A DNA stretch of 30,673 bases from an uncultured Coriobacteriaceae bacterium (GCA_964584585.1 CAZPAN010000003.1:1-30673); one strand, 5' to 3'. Numbered from the stretch's first letter, positions 18,524 through 30,673 are shown. Notes: generated by a model not told the origin, from the letters alone. A program made the numbers and translations.

Positions 18524-19447
18524 ATGATCAGGCTTAGCGACCTCATGTTCGAGAGAACGATTATCTCCTTCGAGGTATTCCCACCCAAGACCGACGAGGG
18601 CATGACCCAGCTCGACGACACCCTCGAGCACCTTGATGCGTTCTCGCCCGACTATATCTCCTGCACCTATGGAGCTGGTGGCGGCAACTCCACCAAGAAC
18701 CTCGAGATCGTCAAGAAGATCGCCGCCATGGACAGCAAGCCCATCCCAGTCACGCACTTCACCTGCATCGGACACACCAAGGAAACCGTCATCGAGCAGC
18801 TCCAGGCCTACCTCGACAACGGCATCAACCACATACTCGCTCTTCGCGGTGACCTGCCCTACGGCTGGACCGGCACCAACGGCGACTTCGAGTACGCCAC
18901 CGACCTCGTCGCCTTCATCAGACAGAACTTCGGCGACAAGTTCGAGATCGCGGTCTCCGGCTCCCCCGAGGGCCACATCGCCTGCCGCAGCCTCGAAGCC
19001 GACATCGCCCACCTCAAGCAGAAGCAGGACGAGGGCGCCGACTTCATCATGACCCAGCTCACCTATGACATGGAACAGTTCAGGTACTGGCTCGACGCCA
19101 TCCGCTGCGCAGGCATCACAATGCCTGTCGACGTAGGGATCATGCCGGTGCTCATCAAGGACTCGGTCATAAACATGTGCCTCTCCCGCAACGGCTGTGC
19201 CATCCCACGCAAGCTCGCAGAGGTCTTCTCGCATCACTGGTTCGACGTCGACCCCGACGGCAATGAGCTGCCCGAGGTCAAGAAGGCGTTTCGCGAGGAA
19301 GGGATGGAGTACACGGTCGATCAGATCCTCGAATACATGGCGATCGGGGTCGACGGCCTGCATCTATACTGTCTGAACAAGTGGGAGGATATCTCCGAGA
19401 TCATCGACAGGGCCGGCATCGCCCGCAAGAACTGGAAGCAGGACTAG
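18524..19447 (+). CDS. metF: methylenetetrahydrofolate reductase
   Basis: SFEVFPPK, ISCTYGAGG, HFTC, ILALRGD, PEGH, KQDEGADFIMTQL, GLHLYCLNK. Confidence 0.93.
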   Translation: MIRLSDLMFERTIISFEVFPPKTDEGMTQLDDTLEHLDAFSPDYISCTYGAGGGNSTKNLEIVKKIAAMDSKPIPVTHFTCIGHTKETVIEQLQAYLDNGINHILALRGDLPYGWTGTNGDFEYATDLVAFIRQNFGDKFEIAVSGSPEGHIACRSLEADIAHLKQKQDEGADFIMTQLTYDMEQFRYWLDAIRCAGITMPVDVGIMPVLIKDSVINMCLSRNGCAIPRKLAEVFSHHWFDVDPDGNELPEVKKAFREEGMEYTVDQILEYMAIGVDGLHLYCLNKWEDISEIIDRAGIARKNWKQD

Positions 19448-19464
19448 GAAAATCAGGGTAACGT

Positions 19465-19501
19465 CAAGCGACCGGGCTGCCGTCGGCGGCCCGGTCGCTT
19501 G
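19465..19501. terminator. hairpin terminator between convergent metF and BCCT
   Basis: CAAGCGACCGGGCTGCC-GTC-GGCGGCCCGGTCGCTTG. Confidence 0.8.
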
Positions 19502-19544
19502 CGCTGTTCATGTCTGATCGTCCGTCTGACCGATCGGTCCGCTA

Positions 19545-21158
19545 TCAGGTATCGGGTTGGGAGCTTTGCTCCTCTACCTGGGTCTCTTCTGGCACAGATA
19601 GCTTCCCTTTGGAGTCGGCTATCAGCATCTTCACCAGACTCACGCACATCAGCAGCATGATGAAGATGAACGGGAAAGAGATCACTATCGTCATGGTCTG
19701 GACCATACTCACACCACCGGAGAGTATGAGTGCGAACGCCATCGCGGCAATCGCCACACCCCAGAAGACCTTCTTGCCGTTCGGCGGATCGAGATTGCCC
19801 TCGCTGGTGGTCATCGAGAGCACGTACGTGGCGGAGTCAGCCGACGTGATGAAGAAGAGGAAGAGCAGCACCATAGCAATAGCCGACATCACGACGCCAA
19901 GCGGATAGGACGCGAACACCGAATAGATGGCGGTTTCGGAGACGGCTGCGATGGATGCGGCCGTCTCGAGGTCCAGACCCTGTGCGAAATCGATGGCGAG
20001 GGTGCCGTTTATGGCGAACCACAGGCAGGAGAACAGGGTCGGGGCGATCATCGCGACTGCCACGAACTGCCGGATCGTGCGGCCACGCGAAACCCTCGCA
20101 AGGAAGAGTCCCACGAAGGGCGACCACGAGAGCCACCACGCCCAATAGAAAACCCTCCAGGCCTGAATCCAGCTGGAGTCTCCATCCACGCTTCTCCTGA
20201 CGCTGTCCTGAATGAAATTGGTGAGGTAATCCCCTATGCCCACGAACAGGTTATAAATGATCTCTACCTGCGATCCAACCAGGAACGCCACCACCATCAA
20301 AGCCGAGCATAGTATGACGTTGATGTCAGACAGCTTCTTCATTCCCTTCGCGACTCCGCTTACGGAACTCAGGGTGTAGACCGCACAGACTACGGCCATC
20401 ATCACCAGCCAGACCGGCCAGTTGGACTCTATCCCGAACAGGTATTCCAGACCGCCGCTGAGCTGTAGGCATCCCATACCGAAGGACGCCGTCACTCCGA
20501 CCGCAGTCAGGATCACTACGTAGATATTGATAATCTTGCCTAAGATGCCGGTCGCCACCTTGCCGATAATAGGCTCTAAAGTGTAGTTGAGCAGGGCCGG
20601 CTTCTTCCTGCGGAACTGGAAATATCCGAGTGCGATGGCGACCACCGCGTAACACGCCCATGGATGCAGGCCCCAGTGCATGATGGACGTGCGTATCGAG
20701 AAGCGCTGCGCCTCGTCGCTCATAGCCTCGATGCCACCAATCGGGCTTACGAAATGCGAGAGGGGTTCGGCAACTCCCCAGAAGACGAGACCTACACCCA
20801 TGCCGGAGGCGAAGAGCATCGCGAACCAGCTGACCGTCGAGAATGCAGGTTTATCGTCATCGGCACCGAGCTTGATCCGACCTAATTTCGATATCGCAAG
20901 CACGATGCTGAAGAACACGAAAAAAGTAACTCCGTAGAGGAACAACCAGTCGAAATTGGCACTCATCCAGCTCAGCGCCGAATTGGCCGCGATGGAGAGA
21001 GTGTCTCCAGAGAGAATCCCCCAGGCGGCCATCGCGACCGAGAAGATCGCGGCGACGGTGAACACCGGGTTTGCCAGCGTCTGCCGAATCCTATCGCCTA
21101 GCGATCCGCGTTTGTCCGGATCTCCTTCAGAAGAGCCACCATTACGATTCTGCATCAT
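19545..21158 (-). CDS. BCCT (betaine/carnitine/choline) transporter
   Basis: About 12 hydrophobic segments. SWFAMLFASGMGVGLVFWGVAEP, HWGLHPWACY, WRVFYWAWWLSWSPFVGLFLARVSRGRTIRQF, FFITSADS. Confidence 0.95.
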   Translation of the reverse strand: MMQNRNGGSSEGDPDKRGSLGDRIRQTLANPVFTVAAIFSVAMAAWGILSGDTLSIAANSALSWMSANFDWLFLYGVTFFVFFSIVLAISKLGRIKLGADDDKPAFSTVSWFAMLFASGMGVGLVFWGVAEPLSHFVSPIGGIEAMSDEAQRFSIRTSIMHWGLHPWACYAVVAIALGYFQFRRKKPALLNYTLEPIIGKVATGILGKIINIYVVILTAVGVTASFGMGCLQLSGGLEYLFGIESNWPVWLVMMAVVCAVYTLSSVSGVAKGMKKLSDINVILCSALMVVAFLVGSQVEIIYNLFVGIGDYLTNFIQDSVRRSVDGDSSWIQAWRVFYWAWWLSWSPFVGLFLARVSRGRTIRQFVAVAMIAPTLFSCLWFAINGTLAIDFAQGLDLETAASIAAVSETAIYSVFASYPLGVVMSAIAMVLLFLFFITSADSATYVLSMTTSEGNLDPPNGKKVFWGVAIAAMAFALILSGGVSMVQTMTIVISFPFIFIMLLMCVSLVKMLIADSKGKLSVPEETQVEEQSSQPDT

Positions 21159-21250
21159 AAAGCCTCACCGCACTCCCCTCCGACGCTCATTTGACCGCCG
21201 ATCGTCCTGACATGGCTTGCGGAACATCTCCGCTGAAAAGACATCTTAAA

Positions 21251-21273
21251 CTAAGTTAGCAGTGCTAACTTAG
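21251..21273. promoter_or_regulatory. perfect 23-bp palindrome, candidate TetR operator upstream of BCCT
   Basis: CTAAGTTAGCA-G-TGCTAACTTAG in an AT-rich stretch about 95 bp upstream of the BCCT start; overlaps a TGn-TAACTT extended -10 candidate. Confidence 0.8.
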
Positions 21274-21400
21274 AAAGAATGAAAAATTGGGGATAATCCC
21301 TCTAATCTGAAGCGTTTAAGCTATCGTTGAGCCTCTGTGCAAATGAGCTGTAGGGATTGCGTAGTGCGGTAGACCTCACGAAGATCAGGGTGCGAAGAGA

Positions 21401-23176
21401 TTATCCAATATCCCCCAGAATCGTCCTTGTCGCGGTCTCGAGCGAGTCGATCAGCCCCTGCGCGGCGGCTTCGGTCTCGGCTCTGGCGAACAGGTATCCC
21501 TTGATCTTGGGCTCGGTGCCGCTCGGGCGGATTATGAGCTTTCCGTCGCCCTCCATCGCGAATTCGACGACATCGGCGGCCGGAAGCCTCTGCGCTTCAT
21601 CGCTCCCGTTGACCCTCGGCATGATCACACAATCGGAGTAGTCCACGAATGACACGACGTCCATCCCGGCTATATTCGAAGGCGGGTCGGATCTGAGGCC
21701 ATCCATGATCTGCGACATCCGGGCAACCCCTTCGGCCCCGGGGTAGGACACGTTTATCGTGCGGTTGAGATAGAACCCGTAACGGGCGTGGAGATCGGCA
21801 AGAGCGTCGATCAGATCACGCCCATGCGACTTGTGCCATCTAGCCATCTGGCAGATTATCATGCTCGCGTTGACAGCGTCCTTGTCGCGGACGTGCCCTC
21901 CGCTCATGTATCCGTAGCTCTCCTCGAAACCGAAGATGAACCGGTCGGCCTCGCCGGCGATCTCGAGTCCGAGAATCTGCTCGCCGATGTACTTGAAGCC
22001 GGTGAGCGTGCGCCTCAGCTCGAAGCCGCGCTCCGCAGCCATCGCATCGACCATCGCGGTCGAGACGATAGTCGTCACCGCCACGTCGCGCGACAGATCC
22101 TCCCCGCGCATCGTGCGCATCTCGCATATATAGTCGAGCATCAGCGCACCCATCTCGTTGCCGGAGATCAGGCGATACTCGCCGTCGTGCAGCACCGCCG
22201 CTCCAACACGGTCGGCGTCAGGATCGGTGGCGAGCAGGATGTCAGGACGCTCGGTCTCGCAAAGCGCGAGTCCTCGCTCGAGCGCCTCACGAAACTCCGG
22301 GTTCGGATAGGGGCAAGTGGGGAAGTTTCCATCGGGCTTGGCCTGCTCCGGCACCAAGGCGACATCGGCAATCCCGATGCGGCGCAGGACCTCCACGACG
22401 CATTCGAGACCTACGCCGTTCAGCGGCGTGTAGACGACGGAGAGGTCGGCATCTGCCGGATCGCTCTCCACGGACTGGGCGACCACCGCGTCGATGAAGC
22501 GCTTGAGTGTATCCTCGCCTATCCACTCGATCAGCCCAGAGGCCATCGCCTCGTCGAAATCCATGCAGCGAACTCCGTCGAAGATGTCTACCTTCGAGAT
22601 CGCTCGCGAGATGGCCGTGGCGGCTTCGGACGTGATCTGGCAGCCATCCGGGCCATACGCCTTGTAGCCGTTGTATGCAGCGGGGTTGTGGCTGGCGGTG
22701 ATGTTGATGCCAGCCGAGCAGCGCAGGTCGCGCACCGCGAACGAGAGCGCGGGGGTCGGTTCGACGCGCGGGTAGACGAACGAACGGATCCCGTTGGCTG
22801 CAAGCACGCCGGCGGTGACCCTCACGAATTCCTCGCCCATGTTGCGGCTATCGCGACAGATCGCGACCGTGGGAGCGGGGCGGTCGCCGACCGCCTTGGC
22901 GCACAGCTCGGCATCTGCCGGATCGACCGGACGTTCCGAGTTGAGGTAATCCGCCAGCCCCTGGGTTGCGCGGCCGACCGTATGGATGTTCATCCGATTC
23001 GAACCGGCGCCGATGACGCCCCGAAGCCCGGCGGTGCCGAACTCGAGGTCCTGGAAGAACGCGTCGGCCATCGCCGAATCGTCTCCCTCCATCTCCGAAA
23101 GCTCCTCTTTCAGCGAGTCATCCGCGTTGTCGGCCCAAAGGGCATGCTGGGATTCGATCTCCTCTGCGCTCCTCAT
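21401..23176 (-). CDS. pgm: phosphoglucomutase/phosphomannomutase (alpha-D-phosphohexomutase)
   Basis: LEFGTAGLRG, ITASHNP (phospho-Ser), ATDPDADR, GFEESYG, IRPSGTEPKIK. Start 23176 (GGAG RBS) or 23191. Confidence 0.93.
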   Translation of the reverse strand: MRSAEEIESQHALWADNADDSLKEELSEMEGDDSAMADAFFQDLEFGTAGLRGVIGAGSNRMNIHTVGRATQGLADYLNSERPVDPADAELCAKAVGDRPAPTVAICRDSRNMGEEFVRVTAGVLAANGIRSFVYPRVEPTPALSFAVRDLRCSAGINITASHNPAAYNGYKAYGPDGCQITSEAATAISRAISKVDIFDGVRCMDFDEAMASGLIEWIGEDTLKRFIDAVVAQSVESDPADADLSVVYTPLNGVGLECVVEVLRRIGIADVALVPEQAKPDGNFPTCPYPNPEFREALERGLALCETERPDILLATDPDADRVGAAVLHDGEYRLISGNEMGALMLDYICEMRTMRGEDLSRDVAVTTIVSTAMVDAMAAERGFELRRTLTGFKYIGEQILGLEIAGEADRFIFGFEESYGYMSGGHVRDKDAVNASMIICQMARWHKSHGRDLIDALADLHARYGFYLNRTINVSYPGAEGVARMSQIMDGLRSDPPSNIAGMDVVSFVDYSDCVIMPRVNGSDEAQRLPAADVVEFAMEGDGKLIIRPSGTEPKIKGYLFARAETEAAAQGLIDSLETATRTILGDIG

Positions 23177-23209
23177 TTCAAACCGCTCCATTCGACGACA
23201 GGGAACATG

Positions 23210-24481
23210 CTACGGCTCCACAGGGGAGCAATTGGGATAGATCTCATCGAACTCCGCCTTGTACATGTTCTGCCCGCCGGATCGGGACTCAACCAGAGGC
23301 TCGGTGATGTAATCCTGATGATCTATCGGGTTGGAGTACTCAAGGCTGCGCTCCCACGACTCCTTAATTACCGTGATCCTCATGTAGCAGTCGTAATAGC
23401 AGGTGAGGATATCGTAGAAGGTATCGTTGTTCACGCTGTTGGAATGCGGGGTCAGCCCGTTGAGGTACTCGTAGGCCTCGCTGAGTTCGTCTGCAAGACT
23501 AGAGGCGGTGCTGGCATAGGATTCCCTGGTTGAGAAACTCTCTTTCGTGTAGTTGTTGTTAAAATCGGTCGCCGCTGCCGCTATGCGCGCGTCGTAATTC
23601 TCGAGCTGGCTGTAGTACTCGTCGAGTATCTCGTAGAACTCCTCCTCAGAACCATAGGCCCTCTTGCTGCCGCTGTAATAGGAGTAGCCGTAGCCGTATG
23701 GAACGGAGGAGGTCGATTCGGAATCGGTTCCCGAATCCTGAGATTGGCTGGTTTCGGAAGACTGGCCCAGAATGGAGATGCTATCCGGAAAATAGGTCGG
23801 GATGACCCAGAGCACCGCGATGAGGGCCAGCGCCACGACTACAGCCGCGATCACGCCGATCGTCACGTAGAAGGACGTCTGGCGTTTCTTCTTCTTTTCC
23901 TGAACAACGCTGTACGGCTGGCCGGCTATGGTCTGATTGGCGTCGTAAACCCGCTGCTGGTACTGGTACGCGTTGCCGTACGGAAGCTGGCCCTGAGCAT
24001 AGGGCTGCTGGCCGGCCATGTTCATCTGAACGGTCTGATTGGGAGGATACTGGACAGTGCCGGGCTGGATCGGAGCACTAAATTGCTGGCCAGAACCATG
24101 CAGACTCTGGGTCTCGAACTGCTGCGTAACGCCAGGCTGAGTCGAAAATCCGAACTGCTGCGTGACATCGCCCGAGCCGGGGAAGGATCGGCTGAAGTCG
24201 GCCTGGGTCGGCGCGGCTCCGACGGGTGCAGTCCCGATAGCGTCAAGACCTGACATGTCGGGAGTGTAAGCTCCGCCGGAGCTGCCAGCCGTCGTCGTGG
24301 CATCGGCAGCTGCGGCAGGATAGCTCGCTCCGTCGGATCCGGTCGTCTTGCCGTCGTCCGCCCGTCCGACTCCAGCAGGCCCTTCGGGATGATCGACCTG
24401 GTACCCGCAGTTGGTGCAGAACTGCAAGCTCTGCTTGAGCTCCTGACCGCAATAGACGCAGTAGACCTTCTCGCCGCTCAT
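23210..24481 (-). CDS. zinc-ribbon-domain single-pass membrane protein of unknown function
   Basis: N-terminal CVYC-x10-CTNC, Gln/Gly/Pro-rich linker, KKKKR followed by a TM helix, acidic Tyr-rich C-terminal domain. ATG 24481 after GGAGGGG. Confidence 0.8.
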   Translation of the reverse strand: MSGEKVYCVYCGQELKQSLQFCTNCGYQVDHPEGPAGVGRADDGKTTGSDGASYPAAAADATTTAGSSGGAYTPDMSGLDAIGTAPVGAAPTQADFSRSFPGSGDVTQQFGFSTQPGVTQQFETQSLHGSGQQFSAPIQPGTVQYPPNQTVQMNMAGQQPYAQGQLPYGNAYQYQQRVYDANQTIAGQPYSVVQEKKKKRQTSFYVTIGVIAAVVVALALIAVLWVIPTYFPDSISILGQSSETSQSQDSGTDSESTSSVPYGYGYSYYSGSKRAYGSEEEFYEILDEYYSQLENYDARIAAAATDFNNNYTKESFSTRESYASTASSLADELSEAYEYLNGLTPHSNSVNNDTFYDILTCYYDCYMRITVIKESWERSLEYSNPIDHQDYITEPLVESRSGGQNMYKAEFDEIYPNCSPVEP

Positions 24482-24530
24482 TTCCCCTCCCGTCAAAACG
24501 CATGGACGAAAGCAATCAATCAGCGTTTCC

Positions 24531-26420
24531 CTAGAACTCCTGAGCGGTTGGAGTGGCCCTGACCTCCAGCGGGGCGTCGCCGGCCGCAGACGAGGTGGTC
24601 ACCGTGTAGGTTAACGTGATGGTCTCGCCGGGCTGCAGGTGGGTGTCAGCGAACACCACTTCGATACCGTTGTAGCTGCCCTCCTGCAGCACGATGTCGT
24701 CACGGCCCGTCGCGACGACATCGTCAACAGAGCCACCGGCCGGAGCGTAGAGATGGAACCTCAGAAGCTCGTCCGCCCTGCTGAGAGCCGCCTCGTTCCA
24801 CGCGCGCACGTACTCGGGGATGCTGCTCTCCATGCTCGGGTCGAGGGTGTTGGTCATCTTCACGTTCATCTGATAAGTGGACGTCCCGTCGGAATTCACC
24901 GTCTGCTCGCCCACGGTCACCTCTAGATCGAGGTACCAATCGAGCTTCGACCAGCTGTAGTTGCTAACGTACACGCCGGTCTCGGCGACCGTCGTGTCGG
25001 TGGAGATGGCACCGGAGAAGTCGAGTTCCTCGATCAGGGCTTGCTCCTCCTCGTCAGCCATCCAGACGAAGAAGCGGTAATCGTCGACACCCTCCGCCCA
25101 TGCGGTGAGCATCGGAACCAGAGTGGAGGATCCGATGCCGTTCATGATGACGTCGAATGCCTGGGATGCAACATCCGCGAACACTTCGTCCTGCGTGTCG
25201 CCGTCCGAATAGAGCCAATAGATATCGCTCATCAGGTACTGCGCGGTGTTGGAGCCGTCCAGGTAGGTCCCATCGGAAGCGGTCACGCCGCCCATGATGG
25301 AAAGAAAGCTCTGCAGCAAAACCGGATCTAGGGCGAACACGCCGTCGATCGTGCCGCCGTACAGGGTTGTCCAAAACTGCGAGATCCTGCTCGCGGTACG
25401 TGGGAAATCGGGGTTGTAGAGAGAGTCGCCGGCCGTGACCGTCATCGCCTCGCCGCTAAACTCGCCGCCTTGGAACAGATAGTACTCCTCGTCGGTGATG
25501 GACACCGATTGAGAGCTATCCACCCACATCACCGAGCTGAATTCTCCGAGCGAGATGACGCCGTCGGTTATGGTGACAAGCCCCTGCGCTCCTGCGAATC
25601 CGCCGCCAGCGCGGATCTCCGCGTTGTTCATCGCGACCACAAGATAGTTCCTGGTCTGCCCATCCGCGCCCAGCATCTCGGGGAGCACCGACGCCAGCTC
25701 ACTGGTCGTCTCCGCGAAATCCGCGACCGTCCCCATTCCGCTCTTCGCGATATCTATAACCGAGGCGAGCTGATCGATATGCACCTCTCCGATGCTCTGA
25801 ATCGACTCGTTAGCGGATTCGATGATCGGAGCGGCCTCCACCAGACCGTCCGCGAGAAGGGTCAGGCTATCGACATCTATCCGGCCGTCGGCGTACAGCG
25901 TGTCGAGGGAGATGCTGCCGATTACGTCGGACATCGGGGCCAGGGCCTCCGATGCAAGGTCGTCAATCGCTATGACGAGGGTCCTCGCCGCAGAAATGTC
26001 CTCGCCCAGAACAGGGATGAAACCGCCCAGAATCCAGAGCGGACCGCTGACTTCATTCCGCATCGCCGAAGTCTGCTCCGCAAGCACGTTTATATCCGAC
26101 GCCAGACCCTCGCTGTCGCCGTTCGAGATCTTTTCCTGTATCCCCTGCGCGGTGACCATGGCCGTGCGGGCCTCGTCCATCACGGCCATCGCGGAGCGGT
26201 AGAGCAGAAAGCCGCTTATTCCCAGAATCACCACAAGCGCGACCACGACCGAGACCACAGTGATGATGATCTTCTTGCGCCTGTCGCGTCTTCTGCGCCT
26301 TCTGCGTTTTCTACGCTCGGGCGAATGGCCGGCATGCTTGCCTCGTCTGGAATGCGCACCCACGTTGTCGATGAAAAGATCTGCGGTGATCGACTCGTCC
26401 TGGATGTGTCGTGCTGACAT
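24531..26420 (-). CDS. DUF4012 domain membrane-anchored protein
   Basis: Poly-Arg N-terminus, one TM helix, helical stalk, and YLVVAMNNAEIRAGGGFAG ...PDFP... SKLDWYL typical of DUF4012. ATG 26420 after GGGAG. Confidence 0.8.
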   Translation of the reverse strand: MSARHIQDESITADLFIDNVGAHSRRGKHAGHSPERRKRRRRRRRDRRKKIIITVVSVVVALVVILGISGFLLYRSAMAVMDEARTAMVTAQGIQEKISNGDSEGLASDINVLAEQTSAMRNEVSGPLWILGGFIPVLGEDISAARTLVIAIDDLASEALAPMSDVIGSISLDTLYADGRIDVDSLTLLADGLVEAAPIIESANESIQSIGEVHIDQLASVIDIAKSGMGTVADFAETTSELASVLPEMLGADGQTRNYLVVAMNNAEIRAGGGFAGAQGLVTITDGVISLGEFSSVMWVDSSQSVSITDEEYYLFQGGEFSGEAMTVTAGDSLYNPDFPRTASRISQFWTTLYGGTIDGVFALDPVLLQSFLSIMGGVTASDGTYLDGSNTAQYLMSDIYWLYSDGDTQDEVFADVASQAFDVIMNGIGSSTLVPMLTAWAEGVDDYRFFVWMADEEEQALIEELDFSGAISTDTTVAETGVYVSNYSWSKLDWYLDLEVTVGEQTVNSDGTSTYQMNVKMTNTLDPSMESSIPEYVRAWNEAALSRADELLRFHLYAPAGGSVDDVVATGRDDIVLQEGSYNGIEVVFADTHLQPGETITLTYTVTTSSAAGDAPLEVRATPTAQEF

Positions 26421-26508
26421 ATCGTTAGCTCCCATCGGGAATTGCTAGGGATCAAAATGCCAAAGAACTTTCACAGTTTACAATAAGCGCCAACCCTATC
26501 AAACGAGG

Positions 26509-26574
26509 GTCTAGCGTTTCATGTCGGGGCCCTGGGCGCCCGTCTAGCGTTTCACGTCGGTGTCCTGGGTGTCC
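26509..26574. repeat. 33-bp tandem repeat, 2 copies
   Basis: GTCTAGCGTTTCATGTCGGGGCCCTGGGCGCCC / GTCTAGCGTTTCACGTCGGTGTCCTGGGTGTCC, 28/33 identical, no spacer. Confidence 0.85.
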
Positions 26575-26794
26575 ATCTCCACCTCGTATACGTCGACATC
26601 GATTCCGAGAACCGCGTCCGACGCCTCCAAGCTGTCCATCTGGCCTGGAGCTTCTCGTCGACGACCTCGCGCATCCATCTTAAGGGATATGCCGATCAGT
26701 TCATTCCGCCCGCCTCCGGCGCAGGAGTATCAGGCGACGCGGCAGCGGAATCGCAGGCCTTAGGCGGCGATTCTCCAAACCTTTTCAAATAGTA

Positions 26795-26824
26795 TTGCTT
26801 TTAAAGTTAGCAAAGCTAACATAT
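26795..26824 (+). promoter_or_regulatory. tetR promoter with overlapping operator dyad
   Basis: TTGCTT-N16-TAACAT with AAGTTAGC-AAA-GCTAAC (26804-26820) across the spacer and -10. Confidence 0.72.
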
Positions 26825-26891
26825 GTCTCATCGGATCAGAAGCGCTAACACAACGTCGTGGCGACATCGATTTCATGAGAGGGGGAGTCTC

Positions 26892-27683
26892 ATGGAAAAC
26901 TCGAAACGCAAGTACATCGAGGCCACGTACGAGCTTCTTCGCGACGAGGGCCTCGAGAGCGCGACCATCCGCAACGTCGCCAAACGGGTTGGATGCAGCA
27001 ATCCCGCCATCTACCGGCATTTTCGTGATCTGGACGAATTGATCTCCATCGCATCGCTGCGCTTTTTGCACGACTATTCCGAGGATGCCCGCACATTGTC
27101 CCAGGTCGATCTCAATCCCCTGGAGCTGAACCTCCAGCTGTGGGAGTGCCTTGCCTACTACTCGTTCGAGTACGCACCGATCATGAAGAGGTTCTTCTTC
27201 CCGAAGAACCCCGAGACCTCTTTTCACAAGGCGGACGTCGAGGAGTACTATCGCTGCTTTCCCGAGGACATCGTCGACTTCAAGTCCTTCATGCTCGACA
27301 TGTTCCAGAACTGGGATCTCCGCAAGCGCAACTCGATTCTTCTGCATCGGGCCGTCGAGAACGGGATGCTCGATGCCGACGTCGCGGATCGTCTCATCGA
27401 CATCGATATCCTTCTGTTCAGGGGCATGCTCGCCTCCCTCGAGAACACATACCGAGACAAGAACGCCGCCCGTGCGGCCGCGCGGCGCTTCATGCAGCTC
27501 ATCGTCGAGGACTACCAGCTGCGCCTCAAGCCCGGGTTCTCGATTCTGGTCGTCACCCCCGAAAGCCCTTCTCTGCGCATCGACAAGATCGTCGACGGTG
27601 CCAGCGAATACAGAGTCGTTCCCAATCATCCCGACTCTGCACAAAACGATGACAACGCATCCCAAGAGAAAGGAAGTGTATGA
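26892..27683 (+). CDS. TetR/AcrR-family transcriptional regulator
   Basis: YIEATYELLRDEGLESATIRNVAKRVGCSNPAIYRHFRDLDEL HTH. ATG 26892 after GGGGGAG. Confidence 0.93.
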   Translation: MENSKRKYIEATYELLRDEGLESATIRNVAKRVGCSNPAIYRHFRDLDELISIASLRFLHDYSEDARTLSQVDLNPLELNLQLWECLAYYSFEYAPIMKRFFFPKNPETSFHKADVEEYYRCFPEDIVDFKSFMLDMFQNWDLRKRNSILLHRAVENGMLDADVADRLIDIDILLFRGMLASLENTYRDKNAARAAARRFMQLIVEDYQLRLKPGFSILVVTPESPSLRIDKIVDGASEYRVVPNHPDSAQNDDNASQEKGSV

Positions 27684-27757
27684 CGATCGAGACGGAACAT
27701 CGGCTATGGCGAAAACGGAAGCTGGACGTTTTCGCAGCAACAGCCCAGCCCAGCTGA
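27680..27757 (+). CDS. possible 25-aa small ORF coupled to the tetR stop
   Basis: AAAGGAAG-TGT-ATGA overlap; MTIETEHRLWRKRKLDVFAATAQPS. No homology evidence. Confidence 0.2.
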   Translation: MTIETEHRLWRKRKLDVFAATAQPS

Positions 27758-27897
27758 AGAGAAAGGAGATCCAGCCGCGCTACATCCCATCTCCGAACCT
27801 GAAATCTCTTTCGATCAAAGCACCTACCACCGCACGGCAAAGCGAGTAGGACACCAAAAGATCCAGGGCACGAAGTGCCACGCAGAAGGAGGCTGTA

Positions 27898-29346
27898 ATG
27901 ATTCCTTTGATCAACGTATTGACCGAGACCCAGGAGAAGCGAATCCACGACGAGGTCGTCCGCATACTCTCGGAAGTCGGCGTGAGCTTCGAGTACGAGC
28001 CTGCGATCGAGCTCTTCAAGAATCATGGTTTCGAAGTGGACGGGACCATCGTGAAGTTCACCGAGGACCAGATCCTGAAGGCCCTCGACAGCGCTCCTGC
28101 TAGCTTCCCGATGCAGGCTCGCAACCCGGAGCACACCGTGACCTGCGAGAACGGCAGCTTCATCCTGACCCCCTCCTACGGACCGGCATTCGTCTACGAC
28201 GGCCTGACCGGCACACGCAGGGGAACCACCTATGACGACTACAAGAACGTCATCAAGCTCGTGCATATGAGCGAGAACATCAACTCATCTGGCGGCAACG
28301 TGGTCGAGCCATGCGATGTACCCGACGAGATCCGCCACCTGATCATGACCGACGCCCATATCAAGCTCGCCGACAAGACCTTCATGGGCTCGGCGCGTGG
28401 GTACGATAACGCCAAGGACATCTGCGAGATCGCAGCGATCATGTTCGGCGGGCGCGAGGCCATCGAGAAGACTCCGGTGCTCAACACCCTCATCAACTCG
28501 ATCACCCCGCTCATGTTCGACGAGCGTATGACGGGCGCCCTCATCGCCAACGCCGAGTACGGGCAGTCGTGCATGGTGTCGTCCCTGGTTATGAGCGGGT
28601 CCACAGGCCCGGTGACGATGGTCGAGACGCTGGCGATCCAGATCGCCGAGTGCCTCGCGGGAATCGTCCTCACCCAGCTCGTCAAGCCGGGTGCGCCGGT
28701 GATCATGGGTTCGACGTCCGGCCCGTCGGACATGGTGAGCATGGCTCTGACGATCGGCACCGCCGAGACCGCCCTCTACACCGCCGCGACCGCCCAGATG
28801 GGTCGCTTCTACAACATCCCCACGAGGGGCGGCGGAGGCCTCAACGACGGCATCCTCGCCGATGCTCAGGCCGGCTACGAGTCGATGCTGACGCTGATGG
28901 CCGCCGGCGCCTCCGGGATCTCCTACGTCCTGCATGCCGCTGGAATCATGCACTACTACAACGCCTTCAGCTACGATCAGTTCGTGATCGACGATGAGAT
29001 CGCCGGCCTGGTGAAGAAGTTCGTCGCAGGATACGACTTCACCGAGGACCGCTTCGTCTTCGACGACGTTGCGGAGGTCGGCCATGGCGGACACTTCCTC
29101 TATCAGGACAGCACGCTGGAGTTCATGCACGATCTTCGCCGCCCGTTCATCTCGACCCGCGCAGGTTGGGAGGGTTGGAGCGATGCCGGCGAGATGAGCG
29201 TCGCCCAGGTCGCCCGCAAACGCTGGACCACCCAGCTGGAAGAGTACGAGTGCCCCGAGATCGATCCGGCGATGGCCGAGGAAGTCAACGCCTACATCTC
29301 GAAGCGCTGCAACGAACTGATCGGAGAGGAGCCCGAGCTGCTGTAG
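27898..29346 (+). CDS. trimethylamine methyltransferase (MttB) superfamily protein, non-pyrrolysine, MtgB-like
   Basis: IHDEVVRILSEVGV, APASFPMQARNPE, PSYGPAFV, INSITPLMFD, LTQLVKPGAPVIMG, GTAETAL, IPTRGGGGLND, DAQAGYES, LHAAG. No in-frame TAG. RBS AAGGAGG. Confidence 0.92.
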   Translation: MIPLINVLTETQEKRIHDEVVRILSEVGVSFEYEPAIELFKNHGFEVDGTIVKFTEDQILKALDSAPASFPMQARNPEHTVTCENGSFILTPSYGPAFVYDGLTGTRRGTTYDDYKNVIKLVHMSENINSSGGNVVEPCDVPDEIRHLIMTDAHIKLADKTFMGSARGYDNAKDICEIAAIMFGGREAIEKTPVLNTLINSITPLMFDERMTGALIANAEYGQSCMVSSLVMSGSTGPVTMVETLAIQIAECLAGIVLTQLVKPGAPVIMGSTSGPSDMVSMALTIGTAETALYTAATAQMGRFYNIPTRGGGGLNDGILADAQAGYESMLTLMAAGASGISYVLHAAGIMHYYNAFSYDQFVIDDEIAGLVKKFVAGYDFTEDRFVFDDVAEVGHGGHFLYQDSTLEFMHDLRRPFISTRAGWEGWSDAGEMSVAQVARKRWTTQLEEYECPEIDPAMAEEVNAYISKRCNELIGEEPELL

Positions 29347-29522: not shown

Positions 29523-30290
29523 TCAGTCTCCGTCTGAAACCCTGGAGAGAAACGCCCTGGTCTCGGGCTGCTGGGGGTGCTCGATGAGCTGGGTGGCGGT
29601 GCCCTCCTCCACTATCGTGCCATTTGCCATGAAGACGATGCGATCGGCGACATCGCGGGCGAAGGCCATCTCATGGGTGACGATCACCATCGTCATGTGC
29701 TCCTCGGCCAGATCGCGGATGACCTTCAGGACCTCGCGCGTGAGCAGGGGGTCCAAAGCGCTGGTGGGCTCGTCGAAGAACAGGACCTGAGGGTTCATGC
29801 ACAGCGCTCGGGCTATCGCGACGCGTTGCTGCTGGCCGCCGGAGAGCTCGCAGGGGACCATGTCGTCCTTTCCCTCCAGGCCCATCTTCTCGAGGAGCTC
29901 GCGGGCCTGCGCGACGGCATCGTCCTCGGTGCGCCTCTGCACGCGCATCGGAGCGTCGATGATGTTTCTCATGACCGTATAGTGGGGGAAGAGGTTGAAG
30001 TTCTGGAACACCAGCCCGAACCTGGAGCGAGCCTTGGCCCTTATCCGACCATTTCCGTAGACGGCCCTGCCCGATTCGTCGTTCTCGGCGACCACCAGAT
30101 CCTCGTACACGAGCTTTCCACTCTCGAAGGTCTCGAGGAGGGTCGCGCAGCGCAGGAGGGTCGACTTGCCACCTCCAGAGGCACCGATAATGCCCACCAC
30201 CTCGCCCTTGTCAACAGAAAGCGAGATGTCTTTCAGGACCTCGGTATCCCCGAAACTCTTATGCACATGCTCGATGCTCATGACAGGCAT
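29523..30290 (-). CDS. polar amino-acid ABC transporter ATP-binding protein (GlnQ family)
   Basis: GASGGGKST Walker A, VFQNFNLFPH, LSGGQQQRVAIARAL, LFFDEPTSALDP, VTHEM. Confidence 0.95.
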   Translation of the reverse strand: MPVMSIEHVHKSFGDTEVLKDISLSVDKGEVVGIIGASGGGKSTLLRCATLLETFESGKLVYEDLVVAENDESGRAVYGNGRIRAKARSRFGLVFQNFNLFPHYTVMRNIIDAPMRVQRRTEDDAVAQARELLEKMGLEGKDDMVPCELSGGQQQRVAIARALCMNPQVLFFDEPTSALDPLLTREVLKVIRDLAEEHMTMVIVTHEMAFARDVADRIVFMANGTIVEEGTATQLIEHPQQPETRAFLSRVSDGD

Positions 30291-30329
30291 GACGTCTCCT
30301 CCGAATCCGATGTGGGGACTGCCATACGG

Positions 30330-30673
30330 CTAGTCATGGTAGTAGGCCATCTTCTTCTCCACGCGGTTCATCAGGAAGGCGACCACGAGATTGAAGATGT
30401 AGTAGAAAATGCCGGCCGCGAAGAAGGCCCACATCTCCCTGGTGCTCGCCACGATCGCCCTGGCTGCGGTGAACATCTCGGCACAGCCGATCGCAAAGGC
30501 CAGCGACGTGTCCTTCACCAGGGTGACGATCTCGTTTGTCATCGGCGGCAGGATCCGCTTGAACACCTGCGGGAAGATGATCTTCATGAACGCCTGCATG
30601 CGCGTGTAGCCCAGCACCTGCGCGGCCTCGAACTGCCCCCTCGGGACGCTCTCGATACCGCTTCGATAGATCT
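30330..30673 (-). CDS. polar amino-acid ABC transporter permease, 5' part outside the window
   Basis: Open to the window edge: IYRSGIESVPRGQFEAAQVLG (EAA loop), LPPMTNEIVTLVKDTSL. Confidence 0.92.
   Translation of the reverse strand, partial: IYRSGIESVPRGQFEAAQVLGYTRMQAFMKIIFPQVFKRILPPMTNEIVTLVKDTSLAFAIGCAEMFTAARAIVASTREMWAFFAAGIFYYIFNLVVAFLMNRVEKKMAYYHD

Follow-up and report, generated by a model that had tools for sequence, protein, structure and literature searches.

A candidate TetR-controlled regulon, split into two units, for betaine uptake and corrinoid-dependent demethylation in an uncultured Coriobacteriaceae bacterium

Corrinoid-dependent demethylation of quaternary amines removes precursors of trimethylamine (TMA), and no TMA is made in the process. 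This chemistry has been documented biochemically in Firmicutes, methanogens, and some Proteobacteria. The described enzyme that most resembles the one reported here is MtgB of Desulfitobacterium hafniense. Mutagenesis and a liganded structure of MtgB assigned Y97 and F356 to the binding of the substrate's quaternary nitrogen and R312 and H348 to that of its carboxylate (PMC13080624). The same study found that the F356Y variant is as active as the wild type, that the enzyme discriminates strongly against proline betaine, and that conservation of the Y97/F356 aromatic pair does not extend to MtcB, MtpB, MthB, or MtyB (PMC13080624). Here, we analyzed a stretch of 30,673 nucleotides from an uncultured Coriobacteriaceae bacterium (GCA_964584585.1, CAZPAN010000003.1:1-30673), referred to as the window. 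Between positions 18,524 and 29,346 it contains an mtgB-like gene, a tetR-family gene, a gene for a transporter of the BCCT family, and metF. We consider it probable that the window carries a split, TetR-controlled regulon through which a small carboxylate betaine, most likely glycine betaine, is taken up and undergoes its first demethylation step. A reading of the DNA made beforehand without database searches (the sequence-only reading) had noted the metF, BCCT, TetR, and MttB-family genes, and scans of the window proteins with Pfam and NCBIfam profiles, on which our gene calls are based, located all four of them where they had been placed. The features on which the argument depends are as follows.

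18524-19447, plus strand: metF, 307 aa, PF02219 at 230.9 bits; classical methylenetetrahydrofolate reductase
19545-21158, minus strand: BCCT-family transporter gene, 537 aa, PF02028 at 557.5 bits; predicted betaine importer
21251-21273: perfect 23-bp palindrome, CTAAGTTAGCA-G-TGCTAACTTAG, with its core dyad at 21255-21269, about 97 bp upstream of the BCCT start
26806-26820: operator-like dyad GTTAGC-AAA-GCTAAC, ending 3 bp ahead of the tetR start codon (ATG)
26823-27683, plus strand: tetR-family regulator gene, 286 aa, PF00440 at 38.5 bits; 214 bp upstream of the mtgB-like gene and in the same direction
27898-29346, plus strand: mtgB-like (MttB-family) gene, 482 aa (protein P0001), PF06253; predicted betaine:corrinoid methyltransferase
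28840-28842, plus strand: CTC codon of Leu315, at the pyrrolysine position of the TMA methyltransferase MttB

The mtgB-like gene is a non-pyrrolysine member of the MttB superfamily. Its frame runs for 482 codons with zero internal stops, which bears out the earlier claim that the gene is free of in-frame TAG, and a strong ribosome-binding site (GAAGGAGG) lies 6 nt ahead of the ATG. The match to PF06253 (459.9 bits against a cut-off of 25) covers profile positions 28-498 of 500 and is thus full length. A sequence search of the PDB returned D. hafniense MtgB (9yce, 2qne) with an E value of about 1e-147 and the pyrrolysine-containing MttB of Methanosarcina barkeri (7xcl) with 3e-48. In a residue-by-residue HMMER alignment, the pyrrolysine of 7xcl, printed as X in AGS-X-SD, aligned with Leu315 in the motif GGGG-L-ND; the alignment was also made with 7xcm, the Lys variant. 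The sequence-only reading had placed a Leu codon (CTC, 28840-28842) at this position, and the computed alignment agrees with it. P0001 scored 321.2 bits against TIGR02369, the model for trimethylamine methyltransferase MttB, which is below the cut-off of 525. The AlphaFold2 (AF2) model of P0001 (pLDDT 93.4) is a TIM barrel. Using Foldseek against Swiss-Prot, this model matched MtgB (Q24SP7) over the whole length with a TM score of 0.96 and 48% identity, compared to 0.87 and 27% for MtpB and 0.88 and 24% for MtcB. A TAG that seemed to lie in frame in an MttB gene of Eggerthellaceae (G004:C24) was also considered. This gene is the orthologue at locus L024, where the match overruns the gene start, and it was dismissed as a pyrrolysine candidate. 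(L-numbers denote loci in relatives or on other contigs of the same genome.)

The genetic link between the mtgB-like gene and the betaine transporter is a shared operator that is confined to BCCT and tetR-mtgB. In the assembly that holds the window (G000; 1.63 Mb, 80% complete; the window contig is C3), the dyad GTTAGC-N3-GCTAAC occurs exactly twice, ahead of BCCT and ahead of tetR-mtgB. Shuffles of the window yielded zero copies, and copies with one mismatch, found on contigs C10 and C74, were no commoner than those of a reversed-pattern control. Related dyads (GTTAKCACTGYTAAC) lie just upstream of tetR in six loci of relatives (L018, L020, L021, L023, L024, and L038), and GTTAKCACTGYTAAC stands directly ahead of tetR in five Eggerthellaceae loci that are more distant than the same-genus genome G011. 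The TetR-family regulator and the dyad are a predicted repressor-operator pair, and the copy ahead of tetR would overlap the regulator's own promoter. PF00440 covers only the helix-turn-helix of this regulator, and its ligand domain was without any match in the PDB. At 286 aa, the protein is about 80 residues above the typical length of the family. Scans for sigma-70 promoters and terminators gave no signal above shuffles.

Gene order in relatives ties the same components together. TetR, BCCT, and MtgB are neighbors on one strand in 10 of 13 related loci, where TetR orthologues (45-77% identity) precede BCCT-MtgB, and BCCT adjoins the mtgB orthologue in 11 related loci. The locus in a genome of the same genus (G011) reads TetR-BCCT-MtgB-BCCT. 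Two copies of the dyad lie upstream of it, one exact and the other nearly so, and an orthologue of the window transporter (57% identity) directly follows mtgB. In the window itself, metF, BCCT, tetR, and the mtgB-like gene form more than one operon: metF is convergent with BCCT, and three minus-strand genes (21401-26435) separate BCCT from tetR-mtgB. Since the operon is conserved in relatives and the dyad is found at both window units, the window contains a rearranged version of a conserved TetR-BCCT-MtgB operon, in which both pieces retain the operator. The rearrangement could alternatively have left the mtgB-like gene as an orphan remnant that no longer works with its cognate corrinoid protein. 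Such an outcome would fit with the broken ancestral order, with a transporter that lies 5.6 kb off on the other strand, and with a corrinoid protein and MtgA that are not adjacent. However, the gene has an unbroken frame and a strong ribosome-binding site, and its product retains every catalytic-site residue. Moreover, the exact operator copies at both separated units argue for continued selection, and we regard a nonfunctional remnant as very improbable.

In four of the related loci, from more distant Eggerthellaceae (L021:7072-8646, minus strand, and also L018, L020, and L023), the adjacent neighbor of mtgB encodes a fusion of 520-590 aa between a LysR-type regulator and a complete corrinoid-binding module (HTH_1, LysR_substrate, B12-binding_2, and B12-binding domains). 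The fusion may be a regulator that senses the cobalamin state, and no counterpart of it was found in G000.

Partners of the methyltransferase were sought by whole-genome family searches of G000, followed by annotation of the matches. These searches detected no B12-binding, pterin-binding, or RACo domain on contig C3, as anticipated by the sequence-only reading, which had placed the partners outside the window. The genome encodes four B12-binding (corrinoid) proteins, three MeTr-type pterin-binding methyltransferases, two of which exceed the NF005719 cut-off, and two RACo/RamA activases. The corrinoid protein, the tetrahydrofolate (THF) methyltransferase, and the RamA-type activase proposed for a genome search were thus all found on other contigs. 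Candidate mtgC/mtgA partners are on C6, C27, C101, and C125. The four corrinoid proteins are encoded at C6 7391-8029, C27 10294-10932 and 5305-6117, and C125 3843-4511. The relevant contigs carry the following genes (MTHFR, methylenetetrahydrofolate reductase).

C6, 5576-15870 (L008): BCCT, corrinoid protein, two MttB paralogues, hydantoinase-A-like protein, pterin-binding methyltransferase, PocR/AraC regulator
C27, 5305-13563 (L009): MtaB, corrinoid protein, pterin-binding methyltransferase, RACo/RamA activase, PocR/AraC regulator, a further B12-binding protein, DUF1638
C101, 1602-6026 (L039): MetV-F-type MTHFR (506 aa) facing a pterin-binding methyltransferase, FolD, FchA, and the Fhs C terminus; also MtxA
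C56, 2-424: Fhs N terminus, with Fhs split over two contig ends
C125, 3843-4938 (L010): corrinoid protein and part of a URO-D-type methyltransferase gene
C161: second RACo-type activase, with a 2Fe-2S domain

MtgC was the best NCBIfam match of the C6 corrinoid protein, at a score below the cut-off. A complex prediction of MtgB with this protein scored 0.15 (mark, 0.34), a value that counts neither way. The MtaB on C27 (PF12176, 534 bits) indicates a methanol-type system; in the other 11 genomes of the family, MtaB was represented only by a fragment in one. The corrinoid protein on C125 is assigned to a URO-D-type methyltransferase system by synteny with G011:C44 (L053:1522-6865), which carries a corrinoid protein, a URO-D-type methyltransferase, a pterin-binding methyltransferase, a second corrinoid protein, a GntR regulator, and DUF1638. 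The genes on C6 make up a second quaternary-amine cluster. In both of its MttB paralogues, Phe replaces the carboxylate-binding Arg312 of MtgB, and they are therefore likely to differ from MtgB in substrate or in the mode of binding it.

These parts suggest the following route. TetR would keep both promoters repressed until it binds a betaine or a betaine-derived product. BCCT would import the betaine, and MtgB would move one N-methyl group to a Co(I) corrinoid protein encoded elsewhere, for which the MtgC-like protein on C6 is the best candidate; dimethylglycine would be formed and no TMA released. A pterin-binding methyltransferase (on C6, C101, or C27) would hand the methyl group to THF, and a RamA/RACo-type activase (C27, C161) would re-reduce oxidized corrinoid. 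Methyl-THF would enter the THF methyl branch, the genes of which lie on C101 and C56 (MetV-F-type MTHFR, FolD, FchA, and Fhs), and also the carbonyl branch if G000 has an acetyl-CoA synthase like both congeners.

The case for glycine betaine as the substrate comes from the binding residues and from the position of P0001 in the family. In the alignment, Y97, R312, H348, and F356 of MtgB correspond to Y94, R310, H346, and Y354 of P0001, so that 4/4 are kept. A maximum-likelihood tree was built from 136 sequences, comprising the best database hits, orthologues from 16 genome loci, and two G000 paralogues as the outgroup. Canonical MtgB was represented in this tree by hits named MtgB by NCBI and by P0089, which is proximal to 9yce; these stood in for characterized MtgB/MtcB/MtpB/MtyB. 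A group of 118 rows (Shimodaira-Hasegawa-like approximate likelihood ratio test [SH-aLRT] support of 100) divides into a canonical clade of 55 rows and a sister clade of 62 rows. The canonical clade (SH-aLRT 90) holds all proteins named glycine betaine-corrinoid methyltransferase by NCBI and P0089 (737 bits to 9yce). The sister clade (SH-aLRT 100) contains proteins from Dehalobacterium and from Bacillota metagenome-assembled genomes, with a nested actinobacterial subclade (35 rows, support 100) to which P0001 belongs. Leu occupies the pyrrolysine position in 55/55 rows of the canonical clade and 59/62 rows of the sister clade, and Tyr is found at the F356-equivalent site in 29/55 canonical rows. 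With P0001 placed in the sister clade, glycine betaine is a likely substrate. The nesting of the actinobacterial copies among Firmicute sequences in the gene tree suggests that they were acquired by transfer from Firmicutes into Coriobacteriia.

Several observations weigh against the proposed function. P0001 lies outside the canonical MtgB clade, in its sister. Fourteen positions set the two clades apart, of which 91, 93, and 96 flank Y94 and 351 and 357 flank Y354, and with such positions beside the binding residues, a shift in specificity could have taken place. Deeper, uncharacterized clades at about 42% identity share the four-residue signature, which is therefore necessary rather than sufficient for glycine betaine use. 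Neither a corrinoid protein gene (mtgC) nor that for MtgA adjoins the mtgB-like gene, and G011 carries an mtgB orthologue without a C6-type cluster. Finally, the only sequencing run with part of the sequence was a bird-gut DNA metagenome (13% of words), and no RNA run contained it.

The first two of these points raise the prospect that the same machinery acts not on glycine betaine but on another small carboxylate betaine or a methylamine, such as proline betaine, beta-alanine betaine, dimethylglycine, or compounds resembling dimethylsulfoniopropionate. Superfamily members at 24-27% identity do act on different betaines, and the closest relatives of P0001 are not named MtgB by NCBI. On the other hand, all four glycine betaine contacts are kept, including the aromatic pair that is missing from MtcB/MtpB/MthB/MtyB, and the selectivity of MtgB itself runs strongly against proline betaine. 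The best NCBIfam match of the window transporter is also the model for glycine betaine uptake BCCT transporters (NF047988; 565 bits, below the cut-off of 650). Taking both sides together, we consider a different substrate unlikely, and we retain glycine betaine as the likely one.

The sequence-only reading had proposed that the organism imports a betaine, demethylates it in a corrinoid-dependent manner, and feeds the C1 unit through MetF. Import and demethylation are supported by the MtgB-like enzyme, the shared dyad, synteny, and the partners in the genome. The step through MetF found no contextual support: metF converges with BCCT, lacks the dyad, and does not neighbor mtgB in any of the 13 related loci, and MetF is present in family genomes that lack any MttB (G006, G009, G010, and G014). 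The window MetF may contribute to the system, although its membership is doubtful, as adjacency alone shows no link. One mtgB locus of relatives (L021) lies near a MetV-F-type MTHFR and Fhs. In a Senegalimassilia-like genus without the MetV-F type, MetF is found 2 kb from an MttB paralogue.

In G000, methyl-THF may be oxidized to formate alone, or some of it may also be condensed to acetyl-CoA. Acetyl-CoA synthase, AcsB (PF03598, frames of about 730 aa), is encoded in 7/11 family genomes (G006-G011 and G013), including both congeners. AcsB was not found in G000, an 80% complete assembly, and the region syntenic with the acetyl-CoA synthase site of G011 (G011:C50:213-8627, L056) holds two unrelated open reading frames instead (G000:C15:1-3000). 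An interpretation of G000 as a non-acetogenic, methyl-oxidizing organism was rejected after AcsB turned up in the 7/11 genomes. Wood-Ljungdahl genes in Eggerthella were predicted earlier, without biochemical proof (PMC10234575). A search of G000 for sarcosine reductase with PF07355 (GRDB) gave no match, but the controls were silent everywhere too, and the result carries no weight.

Alternatively, the betaine methyl group could serve an anabolic role and pass via a corrinoid protein mainly to homocysteine, yielding methionine. MtgBCD of Ruegeria pomeroyi couples the betaine methyl group to methionine synthesis in this way, and such coupling is known in aerobic marine bacteria (PMC12478193). Neither MetE nor full-length MetH was found in G000, and this lends some weight to an anabolic role, although in an assembly that is 80% complete both may simply be missing. 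The genome does encode two stand-alone proteins with homocysteine S-methyltransferase domains (C18:2165-2989 and C62:2223-3029; L054 and L055), one of them beside a Cys/Met pyridoxal phosphate enzyme, which hints at a split, corrinoid-linked methionine synthase. Conversely, several complete methyltransferase sets of the catabolic type and a THF methyl-branch cluster are present, and two BCCT importers together with a dedicated repressor suggest bulk use of the substrate. A mainly anabolic role is thus improbable in our estimate, and we favor demethylation of the betaine as a catabolic first step.

The remaining features of the stretch lie between and beyond the two units.

21401-23191, minus strand: phosphoglucomutase-type enzyme
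23210-24496, minus strand: zinc-ribbon protein
24531-26435, minus strand: DUF4012 protein
29523-30671, minus strand: ABC transporter of the polar-amino-acid type, running off the contig end

The first three are the genes that separate BCCT from tetR-mtgB. Two tandem units of about 33 bp (TCTAGCGTTTCAYGTCGG...CCTGGG...) are located at 26510-26574, within the 387 bp that separate tetR from the DUF4012 gene. The ABC transporter resembles TcyN/GlnQ/EhuA, of the polar-amino-acid type, at scores below the cut-offs, and we left it out of the system. The other genes of the window are housekeeping genes (iPGM, WhiA, RapZ, NrdR, LexA, cysteine synthase, and others).

The probable Coriobacteriia host named by the sequence-only reading is corroborated by WhiA and by the GTDB assignment. 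Identity between WhiA of the window contig and WhiA of genomes in its GTDB family ranges from 77 to 84%, and the contig is therefore no binning error. The GTDB family of G000 comprises 12 species, including a record titled Senegalimassilia sp. The closest orthologues of P0001 come from records titled Eggerthellaceae, Coriobacteriaceae, Senegalimassilia, and uncultured actinobacterium, with rumen and goat and deer jejunum as sources, and an orthologue in Senegalimassilia or related isolates shares 60% identity. Bird gut is a further source of relatives. The distribution is patchy: a close orthologue was present in 6 of 301 sampled genomes of the order. Besides G000, three of these six belong to the window's own small family, and none belongs to the five large families. 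One related locus (L025, CAVFRF010000010.1) is titled "Bacteroidaceae bacterium." Its genome (G007) falls in the window's GTDB family and has 13 MttB-family genes, and the NCBI label looks wrong.

Full-text literature searches that paired Eggerthellaceae or Coriobacteriia with MtgB, MttB, corrinoid protein, or MtaB gave no relevant result, and among the entries listed in the MAGICdb gene table, only CutC and GrdI were given for Coriobacteriia. The novelty lies in the host lineage, the sister-clade position of the enzyme, and the TetR operator linking this enzyme to a displaced transporter; the chemistry, enzyme family, and gene set were known before. The genome of a gut-associated member of the Coriobacteriia provides a full parts list for a known route of TMA-precursor removal, with no new chemistry. 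The repressor-operator pair offers a testable handle on betaine sensing, and Senegalimassilia and its kin are candidate organisms for the conversion of betaine to dimethylglycine. A broader picture, which we put forward tentatively and consider rather doubtful, is that this Coriobacteriia lineage, with genomes of about 2 Mb, is a dedicated anaerobic methylotroph that lives by methyl-group dismutation in animal guts, using at least four corrinoid systems. The four would be the MtgB-type betaine system, a second MttB pair of the betaine/dimethylglycine type, the MtaB methanol system, and the URO-D-type system, all on the base of the THF methyl branch and, in the congeners, also of acetyl-CoA synthase. 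If true, a sink for betaine, a TMA precursor, would have been overlooked in Coriobacteriia, which acquired it from Firmicutes by gene transfer.

Among described systems, P0001 is closest to MtgB of D. hafniense Y51 (Q24SP7; 2QNE, 9YCE), with which it shares the fold, 48% identity, Leu at the pyrrolysine position, the four binding residues, and a link to BCCT. It differs in its sister-clade position, in being placed under a TetR regulator with a palindromic operator, and in belonging to a Coriobacteriia actinobacterium rather than a Firmicute. Moreover, mtgC and mtgA are adjacent to mtgB in D. hafniense and A. woodii, whereas the candidates for the window gene are on other contigs.

A more extended comparison is provided by "Ca. 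Formimonas warabiya," in which the DCMF cluster Ga0180325_114734-114742 is strongly induced by glycine betaine (PMC9768040). Its order MtgC-MttB-(MtgC)-MttB-hydantoinase-like-MtgA is collinear with C6 of G000, and the identities are 64-66% for the corrinoid proteins, 51% for MttB2, 80% for MttB3 (across phyla), 51% for the hydantoinase-like protein, and 40% for MtgA. The window genes correspond to the third MtgB of this cluster and the two BCCT genes that come after it (43% identity for MtgB and about 38% for BCCT). A Formimonas protein (P0118) initially taken as the third MtgB was rejected, as its locus (L042) is another site; the real cluster was found via the hydantoinase-like protein. What forms one nine-gene cluster in Formimonas is divided in G000 between two contigs, and the part in the window is divided further into two transcription units. 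The Formimonas pathway continues to sarcosine reductase.

MtcB, MtpB, MtyB, and MthB of Eubacterium limosum (acting on carnitine, proline betaine, gamma-butyrobetaine, and phosphocholine) resemble the system described here in belonging to the same superfamily, in their three-component corrinoid logic, in releasing no TMA, and in coming from a gut organism. In contrast, MtcB and MtpB are only 24-27% identical to P0001, and the Y97/F356 aromatic pair kept in P0001 is missing from the E. limosum enzymes. M. barkeri MttB (7XCL) shares the Pfam family and the TIM-barrel fold, but P0001 is free of UAG and pyrrolysine, having Leu315 in its place, and it has Arg instead of Tyr at the carboxylate-binding position.

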